From assembly GCA_028716165.1 (NCBI GenBank), contig JAQUQI010000007.1:1191-65190 (forward strand): DNA of 64,000 nt, written 5' to 3'. The notes beneath the pieces are model-generated. The model was not told the origin of the DNA, did not search any database, and saw only the letters and a list, made by a program, of their open reading frames with translations. Positions 3,088 to 61,418 of this stretch are shown here, one piece after another (positions within the stretch are counted from its first letter, which is position 1; each line of letters begins with the position of its first letter). The translations under genes were made by a program, and so were the position numbers. Source of the DNA: Candidatus Omnitrophota bacterium. GTDB taxonomy: Bacteria; Omnitrophota; Gorgyraeia; JABMRG01.

Positions 3088-4335
3088 ATGGGGTTTATAA
3101 AAAATACGGACAGACAGGTATATAATGCTATTATTAATGAACGCGAAAGACAGCAGGACAATCTTGAGCTTATAGCCAGCGAGAATTATGCCACGCAGGC
3201 TGTTATGGAGGCGCAGGGCTCGGTTCTTACGAACAAATATGCCGAAGGTTATCCGGGCAGGCGGTGGTATGGTGGTTGCGAGCATGTTGATGTTGTAGAG
3301 TCTCTTGCCATTGAGCGGGCAAAGAGCCTCTATAAAGCTGAACATGCCAATGTTCAGCCGCATTCAGGCTCAAGCGCCAATATGGCTGTTTTGTTCAGCC
3401 AGCTAAAATTCGGTGATACTATTTTGGCAATGGACCTTGCCTGCGGCGGGCATCTGACACACGGACATCCTTTGAATTTTTCAGGCAAGTATTTTAATAT
3501 AATACCTTACGGAGTGGATAGGAAAACCGAAAGGCTTGATTATGATAATATATTGTCCCTTGCCGAAAAACACAAACCAAGGCTCTTGATAGCAGGTGCC
3601 AGCGCGTATCCAAGAACCATACATCCTGACAGGTTAAGGCATATATGCGATAAAACAGGGGCCTTGCTTATGGTTGATATGGCGCATATTGCAGGGCTTA
3701 TAGCAGGCGGTTGCCATCCCAATCCCGTAGAATACGCGGAGTTTGTCACAAGCACCACCCATAAGACACTTTGCGGGCCAAGGAGCGGATTTATACTTTG
3801 CAGAAAAGACTTTGCCAAACAGGTGGATTATACTGTTTTTCCGGGATTGCAGGGAGGGCCGTTGATGCACATAATCGCGGCTAAGGCCATTGCTTTTAAA
3901 GAGGCCTCCACACAAAGGTTTAAGCGCAAGCAGATACAAACTTTGAAAAATGCCTTTGTTCTGTCCGAAGAGTTAAAAAATCTTGGATACAGGATAGTTT
4001 CAGGCGGCACAGATAATCATATGGTTTTAGTTGATGTTTATTGTTCAAGACAGGTAACAGGTAAAGATGCTTCCGCTGCTCTTGACAGGGCGGGTATCAC
4101 GGTTAATAAAAACCTGATACCATACGACTCCCAGCCCCCTCTCGTGGCCAGCGGCATAAGATTAGGAAGCCCAGCCCTTACGTCAAGGGGAATGAAAGAG
4201 CCGCAGATGAAAAAAATCGCGCGCTTGATAGATGATGTCTTATCCCACATTACAAATGAAGCCAGGATCAAGGATATCAAAGAAGAGGTATCAAGGCTTA
4301 CAAAAAAATTCCCTGTGTATAAGGTGAAAAAATGA
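3088..4335 (+). CDS. glyA: serine hydroxymethyltransferase
   Basis: Full-length SHMT with the PLP lysine motif [14 protein letters not shown]. Confidence 0.95.
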
Positions 4336-4850
4336 AAAGAAAAGGTAAAAAACACGACAGGATAAGAGCTGTTAGTGATATGAGGCCTGATTGGGATACG
4401 TATTTTATGGATTTGGCAATACTTGCTTCCAGAAGGGCGACATGTTTAAGGCGTAAAGTCGGCGCGGTAATTGTTCAGAACAAACATATACTCTCAACAG
4501 GTTATAATGGCGCGCCCAAAGGCATCAAGCATTGCCGCCAGGCAGGTTGTATACGCGAAAAGCTCAACATAGCGTCAGGGCAAAGGCACGAATTATGCAG
4601 AGGATTGCACGCGGAACAGAACGCGATTATACAGGCGGCCTTGCACGGGGTTAGCCTTAAAGGCTCTATTTTATATTGCACGAATATGCCCTGTGCCATA
4701 TGCGCGAAGATGCTTATTAATGCCGGCATAAAAAAAATAGTTGCTGCTGACAGTTATTCCGACCAGATGGCGGAAGGTTTTTTGAAAGAGGCCGGTATCA
4801 AGATAGCTCATATTAAAAAACAGAGAAAACAGAAGATTTTGGGTGTTTAA
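4332..4850 (+). CDS. dCMP deaminase (ComEB-like cytidine/deoxycytidylate deaminase)
   Basis: Zinc-binding deaminase motifs HAEQNAI and [16 protein letters not shown] are present. Confidence 0.8.
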
Positions 4851-22840: not shown

Positions 22841-22930
22841 GGAGAGATGGCTGAGTGGTTGAAAGCGGTCGCCTCGAAAGCGATTAGGCCTTTACGGGTC
22901 TCGGGGGTTCGAATCCTCCTCTCTCCGCCA
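22841..22930 (+). tRNA. tRNA-Ser: tRNA-Ser (anticodon CGA)
   Basis: Acceptor ggagaga/tctctcc, anticodon loop cuCGAaa, a long variable arm and CCA. Confidence 0.8.
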
Positions 22931-22990
22931 TTCTGCTTCGCTCAAAGCTTTTCAGCTTTGAGCTTCGCAGGAATTGGCGAAGCAGAATGT
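22931..22990 (+). terminator. nested inverted repeats immediately after tRNA-Ser(CGA)
   Basis: ttctgcttcg…cgaagcagaa encloses gctcaaagc…gctttgagc. Confidence 0.35.
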
Positions 22991-23048
22991 CTCTGCGTAG
23001 CCCTACCGGCTATTGCTTGTTGAAGGGCGAAGTAGGACAATAACGAAT

Positions 23049-23291
23049 ATGTATATAGTTTATATACTTATCAGTAAAAAATATCCAGATAGAATTTATA
23101 TCGGCCTGACTGAAGATATTTCCCGTCGAGTAGAGGAGCATAATGCCGATAAATCATCTTATAGTCGTAAATATGGGCCTTGGGAATTAACGACATATAT
23201 AACTTTCAGTCAGAAGAAAAAAGCTGTTGAATTTGAAAGATATTTAAAATCCGGATCAGGATTTGCGTTTTTAAAAAAACGGTTTATTTGA
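23049..23291 (+). CDS. GIY-YIG domain nuclease (small stand-alone)
   Basis: Translation MYIVYILISKK…IYIGLTEDISRRVEEHN matches GIY-YIG. It lies adjacent to tRNA genes. Confidence 0.7.
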   Translation: MYIVYILISKKYPDRIYIGLTEDISRRVEEHNADKSSYSRKYGPWELTTYITFSQKKKAVEFERYLKSGSGFAFLKKRFI

Positions 23292-23308: not shown

Positions 23309-23532
23309 TATTGCAGGCGTCCTATTTGGAGACACCCTGCGTGCTCAATCACGTTCAATGGAAATACCTCACGTGTCATCCAGAGCGGCAGGAGGCGAGG
23401 CCAGAATAAGCCGCGAAGGATCTGGAAGTGAAGTCAGTATTAGATTCCTCGCTTCGCTCGGAATGACAAGGTGGACGCTCGGAATGACAAGGTGGACGAT
23501 CGGAATGACAAAGGCGGCGCTTGAAATGACAA
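23309..23532. repeat. mosaic palindromic repeat cluster A
   Basis: Left module attgcaggcgtcctatttggagacaccct…, then a tgtcatccagagcgg…gcgaaggatctggaagtga unit, then attagattcctcgcttcgctcggaatgaca and 3–4 further (c)ggaatgaca repeats. Confidence 0.85.
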
Positions 23533-28072: not shown

Positions 28073-28660
28073 GTGTTAATGAAAAATAAGGCAGTTTATA
28101 TTATTGCTGGGCCTAATGGGTCAGGAAAGACAACTTTTGCGAAATTGTTTTTGCCTGATTATGTGAATTGCCCTAATTTTGTAAATGCTGACCTTATTGC
28201 TCTGGGGTTGGCTCCATTTGAGCCGCGAGCAGCCGCTATTAAGGCTGGCAATCTTGTACTGTAGCAAATTGATGAATATGCCAATCGAGGCGTTGCTTTT
28301 GCGTTTGAGACGACTTTGTCTGGCAAATCCTACGCAAGTCTACTTGCCGAATTAAAAAAGAAAGGTTATGCGCTTCATCTTTTTTTTCTTTGGGTACCCA
28401 GCCCGGAATTGGCGATAGCTCGTATTAAAGATAGAGTTGCAGAGGGCGGGCACAATGTTCCCGTTGAAGATGTGCGCAGGCGATTCTCGCGCGGCATCAA
28501 TAATTTCTTCGCGCTATACGAATCATTATTTGATTCTTGGATGTTGTTTGATAATTCAAAGGCAAAACCTATATTAATCGCGAAAAGACGAAATGGGCAT
28601 ACCGAAGTGCTTAACAACGAATTATTTGCCCATGTTCAGGAAAGTAGAGGTAATAAGTGA
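28073..28660 (+). pseudogene. zeta-toxin/AAA-family P-loop kinase interrupted by an in-frame TAG
   Basis: ORFs 28073–28264 and 28316–28660 share one frame. The P-loop GPNGSGKTT lies N-terminal and a zeta-toxin-like C-terminus follows. The single TAG is at 28262–28264. Confidence 0.65.
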
Positions 28661-30818: not shown

Positions 30819-31029
30819 TTTTAAAAATGATTAAGGCGCGGGAATAGCTCCTTTTATCATCCGGAGTGGCGGAAGGCAAGTCAAGCTTCGTTAGAGAGGG
30901 ATCTAATCAGGTCGGTAGACGTCTATACAAATCTTCACTTGCGTTTCCAACACGTAGGGTATTGCCAAATAGGAGGATTGCATGAACCTGTGATACATCA
31001 TGAGTATGGGGGTGCGGGAGAAAATATTC

Positions 31030-32140: not shown

Positions 32141-32500
32141 TATTGCAGGCGTCCTATTTGGAGACACCCTACGTGCTCAATCGTGTTCAATGGAAGTACT
32201 TCGTGCGTCATCCAGAGTGGTATAGTCGCGGTAGGGGTCGTTAGCGAAGGATCCGGGAGTGGCCCGTCTGTCATCCAGAGCGGAACAATCGAGGTAGAAG
32301 TCGTTAGCGGAGGATCTGGGCGTGACCCCGCTTGTCATCCAGAGCGACGGAAGGCGGAGCACATCTCGGTCGCGAAGGATCTGGGAGGGAAATGAGTATT
32401 AGATTCTTCGTCGCGCCTTCGGCGCTCCTCTTAAATGACAAGAAGGACGTTCGCAATGACAGAAGTGATGCTTGAAATGACAGCGAGGCCGCTTGGAATG
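32141..32500. repeat. mosaic repeat cluster B
   Basis: Same left module as cluster A, three tgtcatccagagcgg…gcgaaggatctggg units, then agtattagattcttcgtcgcgccttcggcgctcct and further aatgaca repeats. Confidence 0.85.
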
Positions 32501-32899: not shown

Positions 32900-32946
32900 C
32901 AAACATTTTATCCATATATAGTCCATATGCAGATATTTTGAATCCT

Positions 32947-33281
32947 TTAAGCGCTATACTGCCTTGTATGTCGTCCGGAGTGACAGTATTAGATTCCTCG
33001 CTTCGCTCCCAATGACAGGCGCACTTTGCCTGTCACCCAGAGCGGTATTAGCGAGGCACGAGTCATACGCCTGTCATCCAGAGCGGCAATAATCGGGGCC
33101 AGAGTAAGCCGCGAAGGATCCGGGAGTGACCCCGCTTGTCATCCAGAGCGACGGAAGGCGGAGCACGTCTCGGTCGCGAAGGATCTGGGAGTGAGACGAG
33201 TATTAGATTTCTCGCTTCGCTCGGAATGACAGAAGCTTCACTCGGGATGACAGAAGTGACGACCCAAATAAAAGCCAAAAC
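32947..33281. repeat. mosaic repeat cluster C
   Basis: Left module ttaagcgctatactg…gtcgtccggagtgacagtattagattcctcgc…, shared with cluster D. Right end gacgacccaaat.aaa.ccaaaac. Confidence 0.85.
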
Positions 33282-37599: not shown

Positions 37600-37876
37600 T
37601 TAAGCACCATACTGTCTCGTGTGTCGTCCGGAGTGACAGTATTAGATTCCTCGCTTCGCTCGGAATGACAGGCGCACTTTGCCTGTCATCCAGAGCGGTA
37701 TCAGCGAAGCACGAGTCATACGCCTGTCATCCAGAGCGGAACCGGCGAGGCCAGAGTCGTTAGCGAAGGATCTGGTACTGCCCCACCCTGTTGTCCGGAG
37801 TGGCAGAATTGACGCTCGCAACGACAGAGGTGGCACTTGGAATGGCAGAAGTTACGACCCAAATCAAATCCAAAAC
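37600..37876. repeat. mosaic repeat cluster D
   Basis: Same architecture as cluster C, including the gacaggcgcactttgcctgtc hairpin. Confidence 0.85.
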
Positions 37877-42279: not shown

Positions 42280-42431
42280 AATGTATTACGGAGACTAGTA
42301 TCAGATTCCTCGCTTCGCTCGGAATGACAGGCGTACTTTGCCTGTCATCCAGAGCGGCAGAAGGCGAAGCCAGAGTAGGCCGCGAAGGATCTGGGAGTGA
42401 CCCATGTGTCATCCAGAGCGGCGGAAGGCGA
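41580..42431 (+). repeat. copy 1 of an 852-bp, 100 %-identical direct repeat (coding C-terminus plus start of a repeat cluster)
   Basis: Identical to 44119–44970 by direct comparison. Confidence 0.9.
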
Positions 42432-42636
42432 GGCATGCATCGTTAGCGAAGGATCTGGGAGTGAAATGAGTATTAGATTCCTCGCTTCGCTTGGAATGAC
42501 AAAAGCTTCGCTCGGAATGACAGCGAGGGGCGCTTGAAATGACAGAAGCAGTGCCCCCAATGACAGGCGCACTTTGCCTGTCATCCAGAGCGGCACAAGT
42601 CGGGGCCAGAGTAAGCCGCGAAGGATCTGGGAGTGA
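42295..42636. repeat. mosaic repeat cluster E
   Basis: attagattcctcgcttcgctcggaatgaca…tgtcatccagagcgg… units. It overlaps the spurious N-terminal extension of the 42539 ORF. Confidence 0.85.
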
Positions 42637-44818: not shown

Positions 44819-44970
44819 AATGTATTACGGAGACTAGTATCAGATTCCTCGCTTCGCTCGGAATGACAGGCGTACTTTGCCTGTCATCCAGAGCGGCAGA
44901 AGGCGAAGCCAGAGTAGGCCGCGAAGGATCTGGGAGTGACCCATGTGTCATCCAGAGCGGCGGAAGGCGA
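44119..44970 (+). repeat. copy 2 of the 852-bp perfect direct repeat
   Basis: Identical to 41580–42431. Confidence 0.9.
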
Positions 44971-45232
44971 AGTACGCTTCGTTAGCGAAGGATCTGGAAG
45001 TGACCCATGTGTCATCCAGAGCGGCATAATCGGGGTAGAAGTCGTTAGCGAAGGATCTGGAAGTGACCCATGTGTCATCCAGAGCGGAACCGGCGAAGCA
45101 AGCTTCGTTAGCGAAGGATCTGGGAGTGAAATCAGTATTAGATTCTTCGTCGCGCCTTCGGCGCTCCTCTGAATGACAAGGAGGACGCTCGGAATGACAA
45201 TGAGAGGCTCGCAATGACAAGGGTGAGGCTCG
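44834..45232. repeat. mosaic repeat cluster F
   Basis: Three regularly spaced copies of a gttagcgaaggatctggaagtgacccatgtgtcatccagagcgg unit with about 20-nt variable cores. The right end matches cluster B. Confidence 0.85.
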
Positions 45233-45667: not shown

Positions 45668-45890
45668 ATGACAGGTGTTGTTCATGTGTCATCCAGAGCG
45701 GCATAAGCAAAGCAGGAGTCGTTAGCGAAGGATCTGGGAGGGATCCGTCTGTCATCCAGAGCGGCGGAAGGCGAGGCCAGAGTCGGCCGCGAAGGATCTG
45801 GGAGTGAAATGAGTATCAGATTCCTCGCTTCGCTCGGAATGACAAGGGCTTCGCTAAGGATGACAAGTTATCCGGAATGACAAAAGTGAC
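45668..45890. repeat. mosaic repeat cluster G
   Basis: tgtcatccagagcgg / gcgaaggatctggga units, then attcctcgcttcgctcggaatgaca. Confidence 0.8.
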
Positions 45891-46127
45891 ACCGTGCCTT
45901 GCAAAATGGGGACAGCGGCTTTCATAAAAATCAAAACGTTTGCGGTTGTTTTTATAAAAAATATAAATAATGTGTTGACACCCTGTCTTTGTATGCGGTA
46001 AAATGTTTTCAAATGAAAAAAATCATATAGCATGTCATCTAACATTCAAATTCTTAATTCGTTTTTATCTTTTTGGGTGAAGTGCCGCCAATCTTACATT
46101 ATAAATTATCAAAAAAGAGGAGGAGGT

Positions 46128-49279: not shown

Positions 49280-49560
49280 TGTAGGCGTCCTATGAGGTAA
49301 CACCCTGTAAATGACAGAGGAGGCGAGTATTGGATTCCTCGCTTCGCTCGGAATGACAGGCGTACTTTGCCTGTCATCCAGAGCGGCGGAAGGCGAGGCA
49401 GGAGTAAGCCGCGAAGGATCTGGAAGTGAAAGAAGTATTGGATTCTTCGTCGCGCCTTCGGCGCTCCTCTGAATGACAAGGAAAACGAGTACCAGATTCC
49501 TCGCTTCGCTCGGAATGACAATAAGAGGCTCGGAATGACAAGGGCTTCGCTAATGACGAC
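49280..49560. repeat. mosaic repeat cluster H
   Basis: Mosaic units ending 4 nt before the ATG of the nucleotidyltransferase gene. Confidence 0.85.
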
Positions 49561-49563
49561 AAA

Positions 49564-50763
49564 ATGAATATAAAAAATATAAACATTAGAAACAACCGCG
49601 AATTCACATTAATCAGTCATGCCCTGCGCTATATTGTCAATGGACAGTTATCTTCAGAATTTGAGAGCTTATTGAGTGATAAAAATATTGATTGGCATTT
49701 ATTAAATAATTTATTATTCTATCATGAGATTGCCCCGTTTTTTTATGTAGCGGCAAAACATTATAAATGCCTGTTACCCTCTGACATGGAAAAAGTCCTG
49801 TCCTGGATTTATTGCCGGACAGCCCTGCAAAACCAGCTTATCCTTGAAACATATTCGGACATATATGACGCGTTTAGATCAAACGGGGTTGGATTACTGC
49901 CGATCAAGGGGGCGGCCCTCTTGCAAGACCTTTATGAAAAATTTCCCGTAAGGCCTATGTCCGACATAGATTGTCTTGTCCGCGAAACTGATTATGAAAA
50001 ATCAAAAGATATTTTAAAGAGCGCGAATTATGACATTGATCTTAGGGGGTTAAGCGAGTCTTATTGGATAATGAAACAGTGCCATGTCCCTTTCAGCGCC
50101 CGGCAGAAAAAAGCAATGGTCAATCCCGCCGTTGAACTGCATCTAAGGCTTGATTTTAAGCGATATGGCAGGGAACCTTTGCCCTATGTCTGGCAGAGGG
50201 CAAGAGACATTAATATAAACGGAAAGAATTTTCTCCGGCTTTCACCCGAAGACAGCCTGTTTAGCCTGGCACTGCACCAGAGGAGATTCGGCAAGCCGCT
50301 TTGCCTTAAATACGCTCTTGATACCGCGCTTCTTTTTAAAAAATATGAGAATGATTTTGACTGGGATTACGTTATCAATATGTGCGTGAAGGAACGTATG
50401 CGCAACTGCGTGTATTTTTTGCTGTTTCAGGCGGAAGTCCTTCTGCCGGGACATTCCGGTATCGCGAAAGGCCTGCGGCTGTTAAGGCCCGATTTTCTAA
50501 AGCGCAAGATGATGGAAAGATTTATCTTGGATAATACAGCTTCAGGGTATTTATTTGAAAGGATAAGACCCAATTATCTCCGCAGCCATTTTTTGCTGTA
50601 TGACAGTCTTGTAGAGCCCGTTATGTATATCATTAATATACCGAAAGAACAGTTCGCCAAATATTATTGCCTGCCGTTTGACGATAAAAAAACGGAAATA
50701 GCTTATAGGTTTAGGACGGCATATATCATAGGACGGTTTTTAAAGAAAAAACGCAAGAATTGA
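49564..50763 (+). CDS. uncharacterised nucleotidyltransferase (NTP_transf_5-like), convergent with the RiPP operon
   Basis: The …LLPIKGAALLQDLYEKFPVRPMSDIDCLVRETDYEKSKDIL pattern recalls lasso-peptide-associated nucleotidyltransferases. Assignment from memory; no database was run. Confidence 0.5.
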   Translation: MNIKNINIRNNREFTLISHALRYIVNGQLSSEFESLLSDKNIDWHLLNNLLFYHEIAPFFYVAAKHYKCLLPSDMEKVLSWIYCRTALQNQLILETYSDIYDAFRSNGVGLLPIKGAALLQDLYEKFPVRPMSDIDCLVRETDYEKSKDILKSANYDIDLRGLSESYWIMKQCHVPFSARQKKAMVNPAVELHLRLDFKRYGREPLPYVWQRARDININGKNFLRLSPEDSLFSLALHQRRFGKPLCLKYALDTALLFKKYENDFDWDYVINMCVKERMRNCVYFLLFQAEVLLPGHSGIAKGLRLLRPDFLKRKMMERFILDNTASGYLFERIRPNYLRSHFLLYDSLVEPVMYIINIPKEQFAKYYCLPFDDKKTEIAYRFRTAYIIGRFLKKKRKN

Positions 50764-50804
50764 TGTCGCGCGGGGAATGAAAATCCTTTGCCAAAGCGCG
50801 CAGA

Positions 50805-51095
50805 TTACGCATATTTAATGATATTATGTTTAAGCAGATTGTCGGTAAATTCTAATACGTCTTTTTCTATGTTTTCCGGTGAAGCATCAAATTCAGCTCC
50901 GATAAGGCCGATAATGTCCGACAGGTTTTTTTGACCGTCTATCCGGTCCCATATGTATAATCCCATGGGATTTAATCTGTATACCTTGTTTGAAGGTATG
51001 TGCACTATTATCAATTCTCCGTCAATTGCCCGCCATGCCAGCTGTCGTTTATTTATTATAGGTTTATGGTTGTGTTCAGGTTGATTTTTTAGCAT
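50805..51095 (-). CDS. PqqD-family RiPP recognition/chaperone protein
   Basis: Translation …YRLNPMGLYIWDRIDGQKNLSDIIGLIGAEFDASPENIEKDVLEFTDNLLKHNII matches the PqqD pattern. Confidence 0.75.
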   Translation of the reverse strand: MLKNQPEHNHKPIINKRQLAWRAIDGELIIVHIPSNKVYRLNPMGLYIWDRIDGQKNLSDIIGLIGAEFDASPENIEKDVLEFTDNLLKHNIIKYA

Positions 51096-51125
51096 ATGTT
51101 TCCTTTCTTCAATGAGGAATATTAT

Positions 51126-51296
51126 TTATCTACAAACAACACTTCCCGTGCATACCACGGGCGAGACGGTACATCTTGCGGCATGCGCTATAGTGCCCTC
51201 TTCGGGATGTTCTATTGCCTCAATCTCCGGTATTTGATAGTTCTTTTTAGTGTTTTTTTTGGCAAAATGTTTAAAATCTTTCGCATCATTTTTCAT
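51126..51296 (-). CDS. RiPP precursor peptide 1 (56 aa)
   Basis: Manual minus-strand translation: MKNDAKDFKHFAKKNTKKNYQIPEIEAIEHPEEGTIAHAARCTVSPVVCTGSVVCR. The Shine-Dalgarno GGAGGAG lies 6 nt upstream. Below the ORF-track size cut-off. Confidence 0.7.
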   Translation of the reverse strand: MKNDAKDFKHFAKKNTKKNYQIPEIEAIEHPEEGTIAHAARCTVSPVVCTGSVVCR

Positions 51297-51312
51297 AGTT
51301 TTCTCCTCCAGT

Positions 51313-51486
51313 TTATCCGTCGCAAACTATAAATGAAGGGCATTCCGCGGGCGATACAGGGCATCCCGCGGCATGCGCTATAGTGCCCTCTTCGGGATGT
51401 TCTATTGCCTCAATCTCCGGTATTTGATAGTTTTTTTTAGTGTTTTTTTTGGCAAAATGTTTAAAATCTTTCGCATCATTTTTCAT
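51313..51486 (-). CDS. RiPP precursor peptide 2 (57 aa)
   Basis: Translation MKNDAKDFKHFAKKNTKKKYQIPEIEAIEHPEEGTIAHAAGCPVSPAECPSFIVCDG. Same Shine-Dalgarno. Its stop overlaps the Shine-Dalgarno of peptide 1. Confidence 0.7.
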   Translation of the reverse strand: MKNDAKDFKHFAKKNTKKNYQIPEIEAIEHPEEGTIAHAAGCPVSPAECPSFIVCDG

Positions 51487-51502
51487 AGTTTTCTCCTCCA
51501 GT

Positions 51503-51655
51503 TTATCCGTCGCAAACTATAAATGAAGGGCATTCCGCGGCATGCGCTATAGTGCCCTCTTCGGGATGCTCTATTGCCTCAATCTCCGGTATTTGGTATT
51601 TCTTCTTGGTTTTTTCGCGGTTAAGAATTTTATCTTTTGCATTCGTATTTTTCAT
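51503..51655 (-). CDS. RiPP precursor peptide 3 (50 aa)
   Basis: Translation MKNTNAKDKILNREKTKKKYQIPEIEAIEHPEEGTIAHAAECPSFIVCDG. It lies 21 nt downstream of the rSAM stop. The Shine-Dalgarno is weaker. Confidence 0.6.
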   Translation of the reverse strand: MKNTNAKDKILNREKTKKKYQIPEIEAIEHPEEGTIAHAAECPSFIVCDG

Positions 51656-51676: not shown

Positions 51677-52678
51677 TTATAATTCTTTCCAAAAATCGTG
51701 CAGAGCCTTGATACTGGTATAAGCTTGTTCGGGGCATTTTACAAAGGTATTTGTCACAGCCTGTGATTGAGCGGGGCATCTGAACATACATGTTTTTTTG
51801 AATTCACATACCTTGCAGTCAATATAATCCTCACACTTTAATTTTCTAAGAGCGTTAAAACATTCAGATTTACGCCATATCTCTTTAAGCGGCTGTTTAT
51901 ATATATTACCCGCTTCCATAGGAAATACGGCGCATGGAAAAACTTTTCCGTCAGCGGCGATATAGCATCTTTCAGTGCCGGCATGGCACGGTAAGGGGTC
52001 AACTGATTTAGGAGACGGCTCAACCGGTTTTTCATATGATTTTATTATAACACCCCACTGCTTTAATTTCGGAAGTATCTGCTCCAGCGGTATTTTACAT
52101 TTGGTAAGCGTCTGGTCGCAGTGCCTGCCGGCGGAAACGCCTGTTGAAAATTTTAGTTCTACATCGCGCCTATTCACGAAAAGACTATTAATAAGCGGGG
52201 TATCATTGCAGGTAACGGCATTTATATTATAAGCAATGTATACCTTAATACCCGCGGCAAGGAGATTCTCTATCCCTTCAACCGCTTTTTTGAACATTCT
52301 TTTGCCGGTAAACGCCTCATAAGTTTCTTCGCTTGCTCCATATAGGCTTACTCCAGCTTCATTGATGCCGTAATCATAAAGTTTTTTGGCCATGCCCTGA
52401 TTTATCAGCGTCCCATTGCTTAATATATCTACCCTAAAGCCCCTGTCGCGGGCCTGTTCTATATAATAAAATATTTTTTTTAAGGTAAACGGCTCGCCTC
52501 CGGTAAATGTAATATGAAAAGCCCCTGCATCGGCGAGCTCATCCAGCAGTTTTATCAGCCTTTCGTGTTTTAATTCGGCACCGTCTTTTTTATTGATGCA
52601 ATACATGCAGTTAAGATTGCAGAAACGGGTGAGTTCTATGTGAACCTTTTTTATATAATTTTTTGCAAGTCCTTCCAC
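51677..52678 (-). CDS. radical SAM/SPASM-domain peptide maturase
   Basis: N-terminal CNLNCMYC (CX3CX2C) cluster. The C-terminus has 7 or more Cys in a SPASM-like arrangement (…CKVCEFKKTCMFRCPAQ…VKCPEQ). Confidence 0.8.
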   Translation of the reverse strand: MEGLAKNYIKKVHIELTRFCNLNCMYCINKKDGAELKHERLIKLLDELADAGAFHITFTGGEPFTLKKIFYYIEQARDRGFRVDILSNGTLINQGMAKKLYDYGINEAGVSLYGASEETYEAFTGKRMFKKAVEGIENLLAAGIKVYIAYNINAVTCNDTPLINSLFVNRRDVELKFSTGVSAGRHCDQTLTKCKIPLEQILPKLKQWGVIIKSYEKPVEPSPKSVDPLPCHAGTERCYIAADGKVFPCAVFPMEAGNIYKQPLKEIWRKSECFNALRKLKCEDYIDCKVCEFKKTCMFRCPAQSQAVTNTFVKCPEQAYTSIKALHDFWKEL

Positions 52679-53577
52679 AATGACCCTCTTTTCAAGAGTT
52701 CTTTTTTGATATTTTCACAGCCTATTGTTAATATGCCGCTTTTTACCTGAAGTGCCAAGCTGTTTAATCGGTTGAACATGTTTTTTACAGCGCGGTTGTT
52801 TACAATCTCCATATTAAAGGTATTAACGCTTGATGTCAATAGTTTTATCGCGGCTTCCGGTTTTGAGATGGCCTGCCAGCGCAAATTCCACCCCGTGGCT
52901 TTTTCAAGAAATATAAGCAGAGACGGCACGCGGTAGCTTTCCCATGAGCCGGCATTTAAGAGATTTAGCGTGTCTTTGCGGTTATTTCTTCTGCTTAGTC
53001 CTTCAATATAGGGAAATGTGACAGATATGGTGTTACGGCCTTTTTTACCTATCATGGTATGGGAATCGCTTATTATCTTAAATCCGTTGACCGCGGCGCT
53101 TATCAGAAGGGTTGTTTTGCCGTAACCCGAAGGCCCTGTGGCAATTACGCAATGCCTGTCCTTTGCCCAGCATGAGGCGTGCAGAAACGCGAAACCGTCA
53201 ATTTTTAACAATGTCTTTAAAGTATTTTGAAACAGCGCGTAATAACCTATAGTCTGCTGGTTTCTGTAAACAAGGCCAACCCATGATCTGTTTTTAAGGT
53301 TAAATAACGATTCATAGTGGTCATTGTTTTGAATTTTACCGCCGGATGCCAGTATATCCTGCCGCAGTGTCTTGTATGTTTCTTTACCGCGCAACAGGGT
53401 TATGGTAATGTTTTTTGGGTTTTTTACAGTAGGGGTATTTATATAATGATTTTTTATGTAATTGACCAGAACGGGGACATCGGTTATCAGGTTGATCTTG
53501 TAATCATATATGGAAAAATCATAGGTCAATAACCGTTTTGCGTGAATGTCATTCAGAGCGTATGCTGTTTTTGGCAT
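52651..53577 (-). CDS. HPr-kinase-related (HprK C-domain-like) P-loop protein
   Basis: VIATGPSGYGKTTLLISAAVNGFKIISDSHTMI parallels the HprK Walker A region. An AGGAG Shine-Dalgarno precedes it. The start overlaps the rSAM gene. Confidence 0.65.
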   Translation of the reverse strand: MPKTAYALNDIHAKRLLTYDFSIYDYKINLITDVPVLVNYIKNHYINTPTVKNPKNITITLLRGKETYKTLRQDILASGGKIQNNDHYESLFNLKNRSWVGLVYRNQQTIGYYALFQNTLKTLLKIDGFAFLHASCWAKDRHCVIATGPSGYGKTTLLISAAVNGFKIISDSHTMIGKKGRNTISVTFPYIEGLSRRNNRKDTLNLLNAGSWESYRVPSLLIFLEKATGWNLRWQAISKPEAAIKLLTSSVNTFNMEIVNNRAVKNMFNRLNSLALQVKSGILTIGCENIKKELLKRGSLWKDLQKII

Positions 53578-53684: not shown

Positions 53685-54215
53685 ATCATCCGGGGCGGCA
53701 GTATTAGATTCCTCGCTTCGCTCGGAATGACAGACGCACTTTGCCTGTCATCCAGAGCGGCAGGAGGCGAGGCAAGTGTCAGCCGCGAAGGATCTGGGAG
53801 TGAGCCCTGTGTCATCCAGAGCGGAACCGGCGAAGCAAGTTTCGTTAGCGAAGGATCTGGGAGGGAAATCAGTATTGGATTCTTCGTCGCGCCTTCGGCG
53901 CTCCTCTTAAATGACAAGGAAGCCCACGGCGCTCCTCTGAATGACAAAAGGAGGCGAGTACCAGATTCCTCGCTTCGCTCGGAATGACAGGCGTACTCTG
54001 CCTGTCATCCAGAGCGGAACCGGCGAGGCACGGGTCATACGCCTGTCATCCAGAGCGGAACCGGCGAGGCACGGGTCATACGCCTGTCATCCAGAGCGGC
54101 AGGAGTCGGGGTCAGTGTGAGCCGCGAAGGATCTGGGAGTGAAGTCAGTATTGGATTCTTCGTCGCGCCTTCGGCGCTCCTCTGAATGACAACGATAGCC
54201 TTCGGCGCTCAAGGT
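53685..54215. repeat. mosaic repeat cluster I (longest, about 530 bp)
   Basis: At least seven units. It contains an exact tandem duplication of a 41-bp unit, cctgtcatccagagcggaaccggcgaggcacgggtcatacg, at 54001–54082. Confidence 0.85.
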
Positions 54216-54377
54216 TTAAAACGTTTACAGCCGCTTAATACGCTTGACAAAGGATATAATATCTCATATGATTATATATGATATGACAAGAGATGCTATA
54301 ATTTACTATAATAACATTCGGGCAATTTCTGTTATAAGCCCTGATGCGCGGCTTATCTTTTATGGAGGAAAAACACG

Positions 54378-57645: not shown

Positions 57646-60439
57646 TTTATTTATAGCGTTATTATTGTGTTTTTTCTTAACAGGTGCATTGTTTTGCCCT
57701 TATACGGCCCAGGCCCGGCAGGAGAGCGCGCCGCAGTCTATAACTGATCTGCCGGATGACGCTTCGCCCGAAGCTTTTTCGGACGAAGATCAGGCCGGCC
57801 CTGTGCCCGATGAGGCGACAGGCCTTATGCCCGAACAGGCCAAATCCGGCGAAAGCCCGGAATCAGGCTATGCGCCTGTAAACGGCCAGGGGCAGTTTCC
57901 TCCCGAAGAAGGCTTGGCGGGCCCGGAAGACGATATTTCCGTTCTGCCGGACAGTCCGCAAACGCCTTCTGCCGACAGCGGCAAGGTATCGCTTGATTTA
58001 AAGAACATAGATATAGTTGAACTTTTGAGGGTGCTTTCTCTTAAGACCGGCAAGACTATAGTCCCAAGCGCGTTTGTGACAGGGCGCATTACCATTTACC
58101 TTGACAATGTCGCCTTTGAGGACGTCCTGGATATCATAGTGCTTACGCAGAATCTGGCGCTTAACAAGGTGAATAATATTTATTACGTGATGAGCCAGGC
58201 CGAATACAAACAGATGTTCGGAAGGAATTATTCTGACCAGAGAATAATAGAGACGATAAAGGTTTCTTACACGAAACCCTCCGTCGCCTTTGAGACATTC
58301 AATCAGCTAAAGTCGGACATCGGAAAACTCGTCGCTGATGAAGCGAGCGGGACCATTATAGTGATAGATATGCCTGAAAACATAGAGCTGATGAAAACAG
58401 CCCTTGAAGAAATAGACAAACCGTTGTCAACTACGACATATGACCTAAATTATGCCAAAGCCGCGGACATAAAGACGCATATAACATCCGCCCTGACCCC
58501 GGGGACAGGAGAGCTTATTGTGGACGAGAGAAGCGGCAAGGCCATAGTCTCGGACCTGCCTAAAAAGATAGACAGGATAGGCGAGCTTGTCCGCGAGATT
58601 GACGATGAGACCCGCCAGGTATATGTGGAGGCGGACATTATTGAGCTTACCTTAAGCGATAAATTTGAGCGGGGTATTGACTGGGAAAAAGTCTATTCCG
58701 CGGCGGCCATGCACGGCTTGAGTTTCGCCGGCTATTTTCCGGCGGTCCTGGCGCAATACCAGAAGATATCCGTGGGAACGCTTGCCGCGGACAACTACAG
58801 GGCTGTTTTGAATTTTCTTGATACATACGGCAAGACCAATATAATTTCCCAGCCGAGGATAGCGGTGATTAATAATGAAGAGTCTTATATCATGGTAGGG
58901 GTGCGCGAGGCGTATATAACGCAGACCCAGAGCCAGGCGACGTCTACTACCGTTACGTCCGAGACTGTGGAATTTATAGACGTGGGTGTCAAATTCAAGA
59001 TAACGCCCAGGATAGGCGCCGACGGCTTTATCGTCATGAAAATAAAACCCGAAGTAAGCTCGGTCAAAGAGACAATAACGACAACCCTCGGAAGCCGCAT
59101 ACCGATAGTCCAGACGTCGGAATCCGAAACCACGGTAAAGGTAAAAGACGGCACCATGATAATGATATCAGGCATGACAAAAATAGAAAAGATTGATACC
59201 GTTAAGGGCTGGCCTGTTGTCTCAAAGGTGCCTTTTTTGGGGGCCTTATTCAGCAGTCGTTCCACGGAGGATAAAAGAACGGAGGTCATAGTTTTTTTAA
59301 CGCCCAGGCTGATGCGCGGCGAGGCTGACATAAGCGGTGAAGAAATAGCAAAGATATTGGAAAAAGAATACCTGCCCGACGGCCTGAAATCAAGGGTATT
59401 ATATGATGAGGCTATGGACCTAATTAAAAGGGGAGAATATTCGCCTGCCGCCGAAAAACTGCGGCAGGTTGCCGAGGCCAATCCTGAATATCTTAAGACG
59501 CAGTATTACCTTTCCTTGGCAGAGGAAGAGCTGGCCAAAGAGCAGGCCCGTCTTGATGCCGCCCGCGAAAAGGAGCTGGATGACAAAAAACGCGATGAGC
59601 AAAACAGGCAAAAAGAGCTGGAAGGCCTGCGCCGCGCGAAAGAAGAAAAGGCCCGGGTGGAGCTTGCCGAAAAAGAACGCCTGCACAAGTTAAACAAACA
59701 GGCAAAGGCTTTGTATAATGAGGCATTGTCGCTTTATTGGGACAGGAAATTTGAAGCGGCTCTTGAAAAATTTAAAGAAACAGAGTCAATATTACCTGAT
59801 TATCTTAAAGTCAGGTATTATCTTGAACGGTGCTTAAAACATATTGATAAAAACCGGGCTTTGCTTGAAGCTGAAGGCAGTAGGCAAAAGCCCGAGGACG
59901 AGGCCCAGCCTGAACGATTACCCCATAAACCGGCTGAAAATCAGAAGCCCGCGCAGAGGACAGGACAGAGGCAGGTTATCCAAAGCGAAAAGCATGCGCC
60001 CGGCCCTGAAGAATTGGCGCGTGAATATTATGCCAAAGGCCTTGGCGCGCAGAAAGAGTCTAAGAACAAAGAGGCCATAGGCTGGTTTCTTAAGGCTGTT
60101 GAATCAGACAAAAAATTCTCCAAGGCGTATAATAGCCTGGGCCTGGCATATGAAGAAGAATTGATGAAGGATAAGGCTGAACAGGCATATCTTGGTGCTG
60201 TATCCGCCGAGCCGTCATATTGTCCGGCATATTCTAATCTGGCATTGATTTGTGAAGAACGACAGGATTTTAACGAAGCGCTTGAGTATTGGCGTAAGCG
60301 GGTTTTTTACGGGGACCCTGGCTCTGATTGGACAAAACAGGCCGCCGCGCGGGTTAAAGAGTTGGAGGAGATATTAGCATCGGATTCCTCGGTGACAGTA
60401 TCGGATTCTTCGTCGCGCCTTCGGCGCTCCTCTGAATGA
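57632..60439 (+). CDS. second secretin paralog with a C-terminal coiled-coil/TPR extension
   Basis: Secretin motifs NIISQPRIAVINNEESYIMVG and VPFLGALF…VIVFLTPRLM, then a KE-rich coiled coil and TPR-like repeats. The start is uncertain between 57596, 57626 and 57632. The stop codon lies inside repeat cluster J. Confidence 0.7.
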   Translation: MRRGNLFIALLLCFFLTGALFCPYTAQARQESAPQSITDLPDDASPEAFSDEDQAGPVPDEATGLMPEQAKSGESPESGYAPVNGQGQFPPEEGLAGPEDDISVLPDSPQTPSADSGKVSLDLKNIDIVELLRVLSLKTGKTIVPSAFVTGRITIYLDNVAFEDVLDIIVLTQNLALNKVNNIYYVMSQAEYKQMFGRNYSDQRIIETIKVSYTKPSVAFETFNQLKSDIGKLVADEASGTIIVIDMPENIELMKTALEEIDKPLSTTTYDLNYAKAADIKTHITSALTPGTGELIVDERSGKAIVSDLPKKIDRIGELVREIDDETRQVYVEADIIELTLSDKFERGIDWEKVYSAAAMHGLSFAGYFPAVLAQYQKISVGTLAADNYRAVLNFLDTYGKTNIISQPRIAVINNEESYIMVGVREAYITQTQSQATSTTVTSETVEFIDVGVKFKITPRIGADGFIVMKIKPEVSSVKETITTTLGSRIPIVQTSESETTVKVKDGTMIMISGMTKIEKIDTVKGWPVVSKVPFLGALFSSRSTEDKRTEVIVFLTPRLMRGEADISGEEIAKILEKEYLPDGLKSRVLYDEAMDLIKRGEYSPAAEKLRQVAEANPEYLKTQYYLSLAEEELAKEQARLDAAREKELDDKKRDEQNRQKELEGLRRAKEEKARVELAEKERLHKLNKQAKALYNEALSLYWDRKFEAALEKFKETESILPDYLKVRYYLERCLKHIDKNRALLEAEGSRQKPEDEAQPERLPHKPAENQKPAQRTGQRQVIQSEKHAPGPEELAREYYAKGLGAQKESKNKEAIGWFLKAVESDKKFSKAYNSLGLAYEEELMKDKAEQAYLGAVSAEPSYCPAYSNLALICEERQDFNEALEYWRKRVFYGDPGSDWTKQAAARVKELEEILASDSSVTVSDSSSRLRRSSE

Positions 60440-60640
60440 CAGGGGGGGGTGCTCGGAATGACAGGCGCATTTTGCCTGTCATCCAGAGCGGCAGGAAGCG
60501 GGGCCAGAGTCATATTATGTCATCCAGAGCGGAACCGTCGAGGCAAGCTTCGTTAGCGAAGGATCTGGGAGTGACCCGTGTGTCATCCAGAGCGGAACAA
60601 TCGGGGTAGAAGTCGTTAGCGAAGGATCTGGTACTGTGCC
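60380..60640. repeat. mosaic repeat cluster J
   Basis: It contains the last about 20 codons and the TGA stop of the upstream gene. Confidence 0.85.
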
Positions 60641-60732: not shown

Positions 60733-61266
60733 ATGAAAACATCGCGGTTTGTTTTATTATTGTTTGTCATGATGACGGTTTTCTCTTTTACCGTTTTCGC
60801 CCGGGCCGATATGGGCCTTGAGGTAGGCCCCGATGATATCAGCCTTGAAGGCGTCTTGCTTGGAGAAAAGCTGTCGTTTTCAAAGATTGCCGGCAGGCCT
60901 ATCGCTCTTGAAATAAAAAATAAAAGCAATAGGGCCTTTGATTATGAGATAAATATACTTTATAGTTTGAATACAACGGCCGGCCTTTCCTATGGTTATT
61001 CGGATATACCTGATACAGGCTGGATAATACCTGAAAATAAAATGATAAAAGTTGAAGCAGGCCAGACAGGCAGGCTCGAGCTTTATATGGCTGTGCCTGA
61101 TGACGCCTCATACGCGGGCAAGGCATACCAGGCAGTCATTGAGGTAAAAAGCATGAAGGACAATCCCAATGATTTGTTTGTCCTGGCATGCCAGTTAAGG
61201 GTTTTTTTTACGACGCGGGCATTGACCCCTGTGTCATCCGGGGCGGAACCGGCGAAGCAAGAGTAG
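60733..61266 (+). CDS. secreted hypothetical protein (C-terminus encoded by a repeat unit)
   Basis: Signal peptide. The last about 13 codons (…TPVSSGAEPAKQE) lie in repeat cluster K. Confidence 0.5.
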   Translation: MKTSRFVLLLFVMMTVFSFTVFARADMGLEVGPDDISLEGVLLGEKLSFSKIAGRPIALEIKNKSNRAFDYEINILYSLNTTAGLSYGYSDIPDTGWIIPENKMIKVEAGQTGRLELYMAVPDDASYAGKAYQAVIEVKSMKDNPNDLFVLACQLRVFFTTRALTPVSSGAEPAKQE

Positions 61267-61418
61267 GCCGCGAAGGATCTGGAAGGGAAATCAGTATTAG
61301 ATTCCTCGCTTCGCTCGGAATGACAGGGGGGGCTCGGAATGACAGGCGTATTTTCCTGTCATCCAGAGCGGCAGGAGGCGGGGCCAGAGTAGGCCGCGAA
61401 GGATCTGGAGGTGAAGGA
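61228..61418. repeat. mosaic repeat cluster K
   Basis: tgtcatccggggcgg…gcgaaggatctggaagggaa…attagattcctcgcttcgctcggaatgaca…ggatctggaggtga. Confidence 0.85.

Follow-up and report, generated by a model that had tools for sequence, protein, structure and literature searches.

The Neisseria Transformation Sequence (NTS), CGTCATTCCCGCGMAVGCGGGAATCYRG, is an oriented extension of the dRS3 repeat, and 'Ssn-related motifs' (SRMs) flank 71 % of the homologs of ssnA, whose product is a 94-aa single-domain GIY-YIG protein (CDD cd10448) (Chenal et al. 2025, Nat Commun 16:2388; PMC11893778). An ssnA homolog is present in 81 % of genomes with more than 200 SRMs. SsnA binds and cuts the hairpin as single-stranded DNA only, on one strand only and a few nucleotides upstream, and leaves the RNA form of the NTS unbound; the GTC before the palindrome governs cutting and the C after the palindrome governs binding. 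Transformation of N. meningitidis by NTS-flanked DNA is reduced by the system, and the NTS-ssnA-NTS arrangement was likened by the authors to insertion sequences and to systems of repetitive extragenic palindromes (REPs), bacterial interspersed mosaic elements (BIMEs) and REP-associated tyrosine transposases (RAYTs) (PMC11893778). Neisserial intergenic mosaic elements (NIMEs), in which dRS3 repeats (ATTCCC-N8-GGGAAT) flank RS elements, are dynamic and lie beside surface-protein genes (PMC1797815). Here we describe 11 clusters of short palindromic repeats in a 64,000-nt stretch (hereafter the window) from a Candidatus Omnitrophota bacterium (contig JAQUQI010000007.1, positions 1,191 to 65,190). 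These clusters are probably mosaic arrays built from oriented DNA hairpins of the NTS/SRM type, served by an Ssn nuclease encoded elsewhere in the genome. The pairing of a GIY-YIG nuclease with a hairpin repeat has thus already been published (Chenal et al. 2025), and what is found here is an unusually dense, one-directional variant that escapes the published motif. A first reading of this pairing as an undescribed system resembling RAYTs and their REP doublets (REPINs) was discarded for the same reason (PMC11893778).

A search of the window gave 52 matches to TGTCATCCAGAGCGG (at most 3 mismatches) and 59 matches to GCTCGGAATGACA (at most 2 mismatches), against 1.07 and 1.19 expected, respectively, from dinucleotide shuffles. 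The original prediction, made from the letters alone, had listed eleven clusters and one solo unit, and units were present at every one of these coordinates; its estimate that the repeats fill about 6 % of the window came down to 3,483 nt, or 5.4 %. All clusters are located beyond 23.3 kb, and neither a regex scan nor a covariance model run with its filters off gave any unit between 1 and 23 kb, the part that had been proposed to be free of them. This part is tightly packed with housekeeping genes (purD, purE, glyA, nrdR, nrdD, msbA, thyX, rpsB, tsf, pyrH, frr, rtcB and serS), and the repeats begin after two tRNA-Ser genes, amid accessory-looking genes, in agreement with their assignment to an accessory half. 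Genes of the repeat-bearing region are almost all on the + strand with positive GC skew throughout, and those with arrays beside them include genes for outer-membrane proteins and secretion (an autotransporter and secretins).

All modules of the clusters reduce to one archetype, consisting of TGTCAT, a 4-5-bp stem, a loop and a C. The archetype occurs as a long unit (L; 47-48 nt, n=24, + strand; GTCATCCAGAGCGG, a ~22-nt core and GCGAAGGATC), a short unit (S; 25 nt, n=13, - strand; GTCATTCCGAGCGAAGCGAGGAATC) and a medium unit (M; 37 nt, n=6, - strand; GTCATTCAGAGGAGCGCCGAAGGCGCGACGAAGAATC). Partial copies (h; n=20, - strand) comprise the first 11-13 nt of a unit at a 21-nt period, and truncated L copies (T; n=5, + strand) are 41 nt long. 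The arrays also contain a conserved 13-nt junction hairpin (J; GGCGYAYTYTGCC, n=10) and two alternative left ends, X (n=3) and Y (n=2), of which Y includes a minimal L-like unit. The stem reads A-T-Y-C-(Y)/(R)-G-R-A-T and stands between a conserved non-palindromic TGTC head and a conserved C. Every L (24), S (13) and M (6) unit carries the head (in the degenerate solo unit at 30855, ATC stands instead); window units terminate in GRATC, with the trailing C kept in essentially all full units. The 25-nt S consensus is matched exactly by 10 of the 13 S units, and by 12 with at most one mismatch. The S-unit loop, GAGCGAAGCGA, consists of tandem G.A pairs around GCGAAGC, which is an extraordinarily stable DNA mini-hairpin (PMC13037366), and the loop is enlarged to 23 nt in M units and to ~34 nt in L units. 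The L cores combine a small set of left and right halves into mosaics, as expected from recombination.

Several modules had been recognised from the letters alone, and the 8-bp junction hairpin TGACAGGC/GCCTGTCA (10 copies), the two left ends, the 21-nt CTCGGAATGACA arrays and the recurring pseudo-peptides VIQSG, SEGSGSE and IRFLASLGMT were all recovered. The exact 41-bp tandem duplication was returned by TRF at 54000-54099 (period 41, 2.4 copies, 100 % match), together with arrays of 63-64-nt and 21-nt periods. The sequence described as a separate right-end module is real but is not separate, being the archetype on the opposite strand in the form of S or M units, and whole clusters had been described as long imperfect palindromes, which is true on a local scale only: the inverted repeats are unit-to-unit pairs of 17-41 nt. 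The broader view of a BIME/REP-like mosaic of unrecognised units that grows by slippage stands, with oriented hairpins, intergenic mosaics and exact or near-exact tandem duplications all observed.

The units follow a common cluster grammar: an optional left end (X or Y), an optional S- unit with J, any number of T+ copies, one to four L+ units, one S- or M- unit and any number of h- copies, in a block that occurs one to three times per cluster (+ and - denote the strand). An L unit on the + strand thus faces an S or M unit on the - strand in a convergent doublet, doublets lie in tandem, and truncated 5' copies of each doublet end are reiterated outwards, with spacers of 13-20 nt between units. 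The polarity is identical in 11 of 11 arrays, for which the chance is ~0.001 under random orientation. No presence/absence polymorphism of units was found between near-identical strains.

A test for compensatory base changes in the gacaggc...gcctgtc junction stem had been suggested. The window copies of this stem are too alike to be informative, and the compensatory evidence was therefore taken from the unit stem across other genomes. A scan of JGI metagenomes with GTCATYCYGAGCGAAGCGARGRATC, in which 16 combinations were permitted at two stem pairs, gave at least 120 loci; among the matches listed (134), 129 carried one of the four fully complementary combinations, 4 carried C.A and 1 carried G.T. 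Other arm variants, which lie outside the selection of the retrieval pattern, are also complementary (ACCCT/AGGGT, ATGCT/AGCAT and ATGTT/AACAT). An alignment of 50 units, comprising 49 from other loci and one window-like S unit with no material effect on the counts, had 91.4 % of its stem cells paired and 45 double-change cells, against 11.6 in shuffles (0/500 shuffles reached the observed value). Double changes occurred at four of the five outer pairs and every slid register scored far lower, while G4, T5 and C6 were invariant or at least 90 % conserved and C28 was at least 90 % conserved. On these alignments, the S unit belongs to a cross-phylum hairpin family whose stem is kept by compensatory changes. 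A covariance model built from the units of other genomes scored the 13 S units of the window at 32-47 bits and four of the six M units at 25-27 bits.

The contigs that carry this family span 31 to 68 % G+C, and the named hosts are Acidobacteriota, Nitrospirae, Chloroflexota, Bacteroidetes, Verrucomicrobiota (Opitutaceae) and an unclassified metagenome-assembled genome (MAG) with 42-45 % G+C. Units less than 90 nt apart are arranged convergently (+,-) in 49 cases, compared with 5, 1 and 1 for the other arrangements; the doublets have spacers of 14-62 nt and ends of the form TGTCAT...ATGACA, and the whole family shares outward arrays of 5'-partial copies repeated every 18-22 nt. Segregation of the unit classes by strand is unusual for the family. 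A GC-skew orientation test on other loci gave 22:32, which is not significant. In a scan of genome contigs with the 15-mer TGTCATCCAGAGCGG, for which ~1,100 chance matches are expected in 596 Gb, the full architecture was found in 11 of the 122 matches listed. Literature searches with the literal unit sequences and peptide strings returned nothing relevant. As a separate observation, an Omnitrophota MAG with 49 % G+C (L271, 10700-10830) carries a convergent element with the same TGTCATCC...GGGATGACA ends and an unrelated interior, adjoining a tRNA gene.

The link to Ssn came from the neighbouring genes in other genomes, where clustering of the open reading frames (ORFs) beside units brought out a small GIY-YIG protein with 6,066 relatives in a homolog search. 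In the best 120 of the 6,066 (62-100 % identical), about 75 end in DSSLRSE followed by the stop codon, a fraction inflated by a query with the same tail; this tail is the complement of a unit read through to its TGA. Three of five further GIY-YIG proteins that were looked up are without the tail, yet are unit-flanked. The gene of Opitutus sp. GAS368 is bracketed exactly by an inverted pair of units, the first 9 nt ahead of the ATG and the second spanning the stop, and the same or a doublet-flanked arrangement is found in four other lineages plus L042 and L172 (the loci with a hairpin-flanked Ssn-type gene being L248, L251, L253, L263, L270, L042 and L172). In syntenic Opitutaceae regions, the cassette and gene-less doublets occupy different intergenic sites and have therefore moved. 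The Opitutus protein matches a coding region of N. gonorrhoeae (E = 5e-20; chromosomes filed in PLSDB) that lies amid 11 NTS copies within 1.4 kb, and full-length identity to this gonococcal SsnA-locus protein is 44-52 % for the unit-flanked GIY-YIG proteins of L248, L042, L263 and L134. These proteins are therefore Ssn homologs by the published criterion. Both 2.17-Mb N. gonorrhoeae chromosomes concerned are filed in PLSDB as plasmids. Two further loci are recorded as side observations. At L276 (NZ_CP119142.1 1878719-1884979) an ssnA-like frame is without an in-frame ATG just upstream of its conserved VYILAS start, and may use another start codon or be a pseudogene. L253, an Opitutaceae-like contig, has a 203-aa Y1_Tnp-like gene (4215-4826; weak Pfam match) 5 kb from its Ssn-type gene and without adjacent units.

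The repeats themselves resemble the NTS in sequence as well as in setting. A covariance model built from units with the GAGCGAAGCGA loop aligned the gonococcal NTS copies from one end to the other (11 of 11, 12-16 bits), agreeing in GTCAT, the 5-bp stem and ATCU and differing only in the inner 10-11 nt. The head (C/T)GTCAT, the stem ATTCC.../...GGAAT and a trailing C followed by YR are common to the two, and GTCATTCC and GGAATC are identical in the NTS and the S unit. The alignment-invariant GTC and trailing C coincide with the positions found to be critical in the published mutagenesis (PMC11893778). High copy number, intergenic clusters and convergent pairs are further shared traits. The NTS differs in having an 8-bp stem and a 4-nt loop, whereas window units have a 5-bp stem with two G.A pairs and GCGAAGC, or inserts of 23 or ~34 nt; in the window, units are moreover segregated by strand per class and all arrays have one polarity.

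A number of results weigh against assigning the clusters to this kind of repeat and nuclease. The published SRM string, HGTCWYN(0-2)YYVSBRHN(0-5)WNVSBRGN(0-2)RNCYNB, has 0 matches in the window on both strands; none of S, M, L or the common environmental unit fits it, whereas the NTS consensus does. The string is the authors' search heuristic and not a biochemical definition, and since it matches no unit, membership of the NTS/SRM kind is argued from architecture and from the association in other genomes. No Ssn homolog is encoded within the 64-kb window, and an ssnA homolog is missing in 19 % of SRM-rich genomes (PMC11893778). The L units score only 13-14 bits with the family covariance model, the exact L pattern has 0 matches in JGI metagenomes, and the pseudo-peptide of tandem L units has no homolog among 5.8 billion protein clusters; within the window, no covariation was seen in these units, the most numerous class, or in their inner helix (P2). 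The L class thus seems, on these comparisons, to be lineage-specific. The strict common polarity, the (-,+) junction with its conserved 13-nt hairpin and the runs of tandem L units are seldom seen in the sample of other genomes. Unit orientation relative to neighbouring genes at 120 other loci (sense in 23 cases, antisense in 19, between convergent genes in 15 and between divergent genes in 11) was scored with genes called by a crude in-house ORF heuristic.

The only nuclease-like gene that adjoins the repeats in the window also counts against the assignment. This gene (23049-23291, +) encodes an 80-aa single-domain GIY-YIG protein (PF01541, E = 7e-14) downstream of a tRNA-Ser gene and 18 nt before cluster 1, and only its 28 N-terminal aa align with the gonococcal SsnA-locus protein (E = 1e-5). 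It was considered as the cognate nuclease and rejected: its subfamily has 0/120 unit-derived tails and falls in a non-Ssn clade, and no units surround the gene in six relatives. From the sequences compared, the 80-aa protein is probably not the cognate nuclease. Members of this tRNA-linked subfamily are without canonical units alongside, and non-Ssn GIY-YIG genes also lie directly downstream of tRNA genes in Omnitrophota MAGs (L242 10001-10249, L271 10001-10243 and L274 10001-10264). The tRNA-linked gene marks a border between conserved and variable gene content, the downstream genes varying and including restriction-modification genes. In L271, the gene is located between the 3' end of a tRNA and an inverted ~30-nt copy of the same end. 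Between the tRNA-Ser and GIY-YIG genes of the window there is an inverted repeat on two levels (22928-22995; CATTCTGCTTCGC...GCGAAGCAGAATG enclosing GCTCAAAGC/GCTTTGAGC), which is loosely unit-like and is kept in the relatives L242 and L274.

An element that acts at the DNA level is favoured over one that acts as RNA. RNA-level roles have been reported for some E. coli REPs, and the units could be co-transcribed with upstream genes as 3'-UTR stabilisers, processing sites, attenuators or small RNAs. The L units are all co-oriented with the genes and the clusters follow gene ends. The predicted folding is strong (cluster 6 as single-stranded DNA folds at -88.3 kcal/mol, z = -6.5), which is expected for DNA and RNA alike, just as stem covariation alone cannot separate RNA from single-stranded DNA. 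A structured RNA is nevertheless very unlikely, because orientation relative to genes is about random at the 120 other loci, the convergent doublets are symmetric, S and M units are antisense to the window genes, the largest array lies between divergent promoter-like sites, none of the clusters has a T-run terminator and SsnA ignores the RNA form of the NTS (PMC11893778). Rfam likewise gave no match to the repeats, with only four tRNAs in the window reaching threshold and the best hit in the focal cluster (cluster 9) no better than E = 0.3. A different DNA-level account takes the arrays as descendants of SRM-type hairpins that have no acting nuclease, grow by slippage or unequal recombination and are functionless. 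It would be in keeping with a window that holds no Ssn gene, with the SRM-rich genomes that are without ssnA (PMC11893778), with the exact and near-exact tandem duplications at periods of 41, 63-64 and 21 nt, and with L cores that are mosaics of a few halves. We consider it unlikely, however: the near-exact S consensus and the retention of the GTC head and trailing C imply recent spread or constraint, local slippage alone leaves the uniform polarity of 11 separate arrays unexplained, and the view is confined to 64 kb of the genome.

Mobilisation as classical REPs/BIMEs or as REPINs by a RAYT (an HUH Y1 transposase), or as MITEs (miniature transposable elements with inverted repeats) of an ordinary insertion sequence, would account for short alternating extragenic palindromes, inverted doublets and mosaic arrays, and the Ssn paper itself points out the likeness. 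In Enterobacteria and Pseudomonas, REPIN-RAYT systems further share a single-copy nuclease gene bracketed by its own repeats and the recognition of single-stranded hairpins. This explanation is highly improbable given that the unit-bracketed gene elsewhere encodes a GIY-YIG enzyme and not a RAYT (the Y1_Tnp-like gene of L253 being without units), that the head is TGTC as opposed to the GTAG or CGTC tag of REP superfamilies (PMC3733652), and that neither Y1_Tnp (PF01797) nor any other transposase was found among the ~45 window ORFs scanned. The inverted ends of a MITE are present, but no target-site duplication or other direct repeat was found around any of 27 doublets. Collapsed or chimeric assembly of repeats is hardly credible. 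Such repeats do break short-read assemblies, and a Logan contig (run SRR22315506) ends inside cluster 8 on one side and inside another tandem repeat on the other; such breakpoints fit real multicopy repeats. That separate contig and the window are identical throughout 49494-51207, a stretch of 1,714 nt of which 70 nt belong to cluster 8, and the window may share a sample with it. The 11 arrays also differ in composition and have unique flanks, and the hairpin family occurs in hundreds of unrelated assemblies. Hammerhead and other ribozymes, k-turns, CsrA-binding GGA loops, integron attC sites and an oriT nic site were also tried and rejected, their key positions being misfitting or unconserved across the family.

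If the clusters are NTS/SRM-type arrays, their action can be sketched from the Neisseria experiments. In single-stranded DNA each unit would fold, and a cognate Ssn-family nuclease (~90-110 aa, with GIY-YIG as its single domain), its gene lying elsewhere in the genome, would bind it on the unit-bearing strand only and would cut upstream of the head at a distance of a few nucleotides. Where arrays surround a gene, single-stranded DNA that enters the cell or becomes exposed would then be open to strand-specific cutting, and recombination of the flanked genes may be restricted, as in Neisseria. Growth of the arrays by tandem duplication, of which the products are observed, may proceed via slippage or unequal recombination between units, and nuclease-triggered repair at the 5' side of units could add further copies. 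A bolder proposal, which we regard as doubtful, is that the GAGCGAAGCGA-loop hairpins and their long-loop derivatives form a separate, very abundant Ssn-linked branch missed by SRM searches, and that the 5'-partial stutter copies, which stand on the outer side of units where cleavage would fall, and the uniform polarity are footprints of GIY-YIG-driven copying by replication-fork nicking and template-switch repair, unlike known transposition.

Two other described elements invite comparison. The window arrays resemble NIMEs as intergenic arrays of many short ATTCC...GGAAT inverted repeats, variable in length and near surface or secretion genes. In NIMEs, however, the spacers are RS elements of 50-150 bp from many families, whereas spacers in the window are 13-20 nt; the window units, of the form ATTCC-N11-GGAAT or longer, are repeated in tandem and in part truncated, and they stand in a host other than Neisseria. 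The arrays are thus an analogue of NIMEs and not a member. The S loop carries exactly the GCGAAGC of the d(GCGAAGC) mini-hairpin, flanked by GA/GA, but the mini-hairpin is a structural motif of oligonucleotides and of a few origins and promoters, and not a repeat family (PMC13037366).

The composition of the arrays is as follows. Cluster 1 (23309-23532), 18 nt past the stop codon of the small GIY-YIG gene, contains X (23311-23338), L+ (23374-23422), S- (23443-23467) and three 21-nt 5'-partial - copies (23478-23530). The degenerate solo L unit (30855-30913, +) reads TATCATCCGGAGTGG...GAGGGATC. Cluster 2 (32141-32500) has X, three L+ units (32206-32381, 63-nt period), M- (32402-32438) and two partial - copies, and cluster 3 (32947-33281) has Y (32946-32986), S- (32992-33016), J (33018-33030), T+ (33031-33071), two L+ units, S- (33206-33230) and one partial - copy. 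Cluster 4 (37600-37876) comprises Y, S- (37645-37669), J, T+ (37684-37724), L+ (37725-37772) and degenerate partial - copies. Cluster 5 (42295-42636), with a 1375-aa ORF on one side and a HEAT-repeat ORF on the other, is composed of S- (42304-42328), J, two L+ units, S- (42476-42500), three partial - copies, J and L+ (42579-42627). In cluster 6 (44834-45232), S- (44843-44867) and J precede four L+ units (44882-45120, 63-64-nt period, 3.9 copies), M- (45141-45177) and two partial - copies. Cluster 7 (45668-45890), upstream of a promoter-like site (45975-46004) and the autotransporter gene, holds a partial - copy, two L+ units (45687-45798), S- (45819-45843) and a partial - copy. Cluster 8 (49280-49560), downstream of the autotransporter gene, holds X, S- (49333-49357), J, L+ (49372-49420), M- (49441-49477), S- (49495-49519) and a partial - copy.

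The focal cluster 9 (53685-54215) is the largest. Its left part comprises a degenerate 5' box, S- (53707-53731), J, two L+ units and M- (53878-53914), and its right part a partial copy, S- (53964-53988), J, two T+ copies (54003-54084, the exact 41-bp duplication), L+ (54085-54133) and M- (54154-54190). The divergent promoter-like sites on either side are at 53637-53609 (-) and 54244-54272 (+). An isolated 5' box, TGTCATTCAGAGCG (53547-53560, +), is present ~130 nt to the left, within the first codons of a - strand ORF (52651-53577). Cluster 10 (60380-60640) has M- (60404-60440), a partial copy, J, T+ and two L+ units (60518-60628), and cluster 11 (61228-61418) has L+ (61232-61279), S- (61300-61324), a partial copy, J and L+ (61357-61405). 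The last ~20 codons and the stop of a 947-aa secretin ORF are supplied by the M unit of cluster 10 (60380-60439). The ORFs at 23358, 42539 and 61411 begin inside arrays (the listed regions include 61228-61266, 42539-42636 and 23358-23532), and their true starts are probably further downstream.

Two features of the window are separate from the arrays. A 190-nt tandem repeat with 95 % identity (51150-51540) is built from successive copies of a 50-57-aa ORF (MKN..KKNYQIPEIEAIEHPEEGTIAHAA.C...; 51126-51655, -) and is accompanied by radical SAM/SPASM, PqqD and NTP_transf_5 genes (49564-50763, +; 50805-51095, -; 51677-52678, -). The region looks like a cluster for a ribosomally synthesised and post-translationally modified peptide with three precursor genes. 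For a 114-aa ORF (28316-28660), the match to the Zeta toxin family (E = 7e-5) is confined to the family's C-terminal part, and the ORF is probably a gene fragment in the variable region.

The arrays affect annotation: they give rise to spurious ORFs, place gene starts wrongly and add unit-derived tails at the C terminus, such as that of the secretin ORF. How NTS/SRM repeats multiply, and what role Ssn has outside Neisseria, are left open in the sole paper that describes them. The hairpin class is common in soil, peat and sediment metagenomes and is linked to Ssn in Verrucomicrobiota and others, and surveys of Ssn and SRMs are likely incomplete because it escapes the published search motif. The asymmetric doublets, in which a long unit faces a short one, make the polarity of an array visible, and together with the outward 5' stutter copies they provide clues to the mechanism by which these repeats expand.

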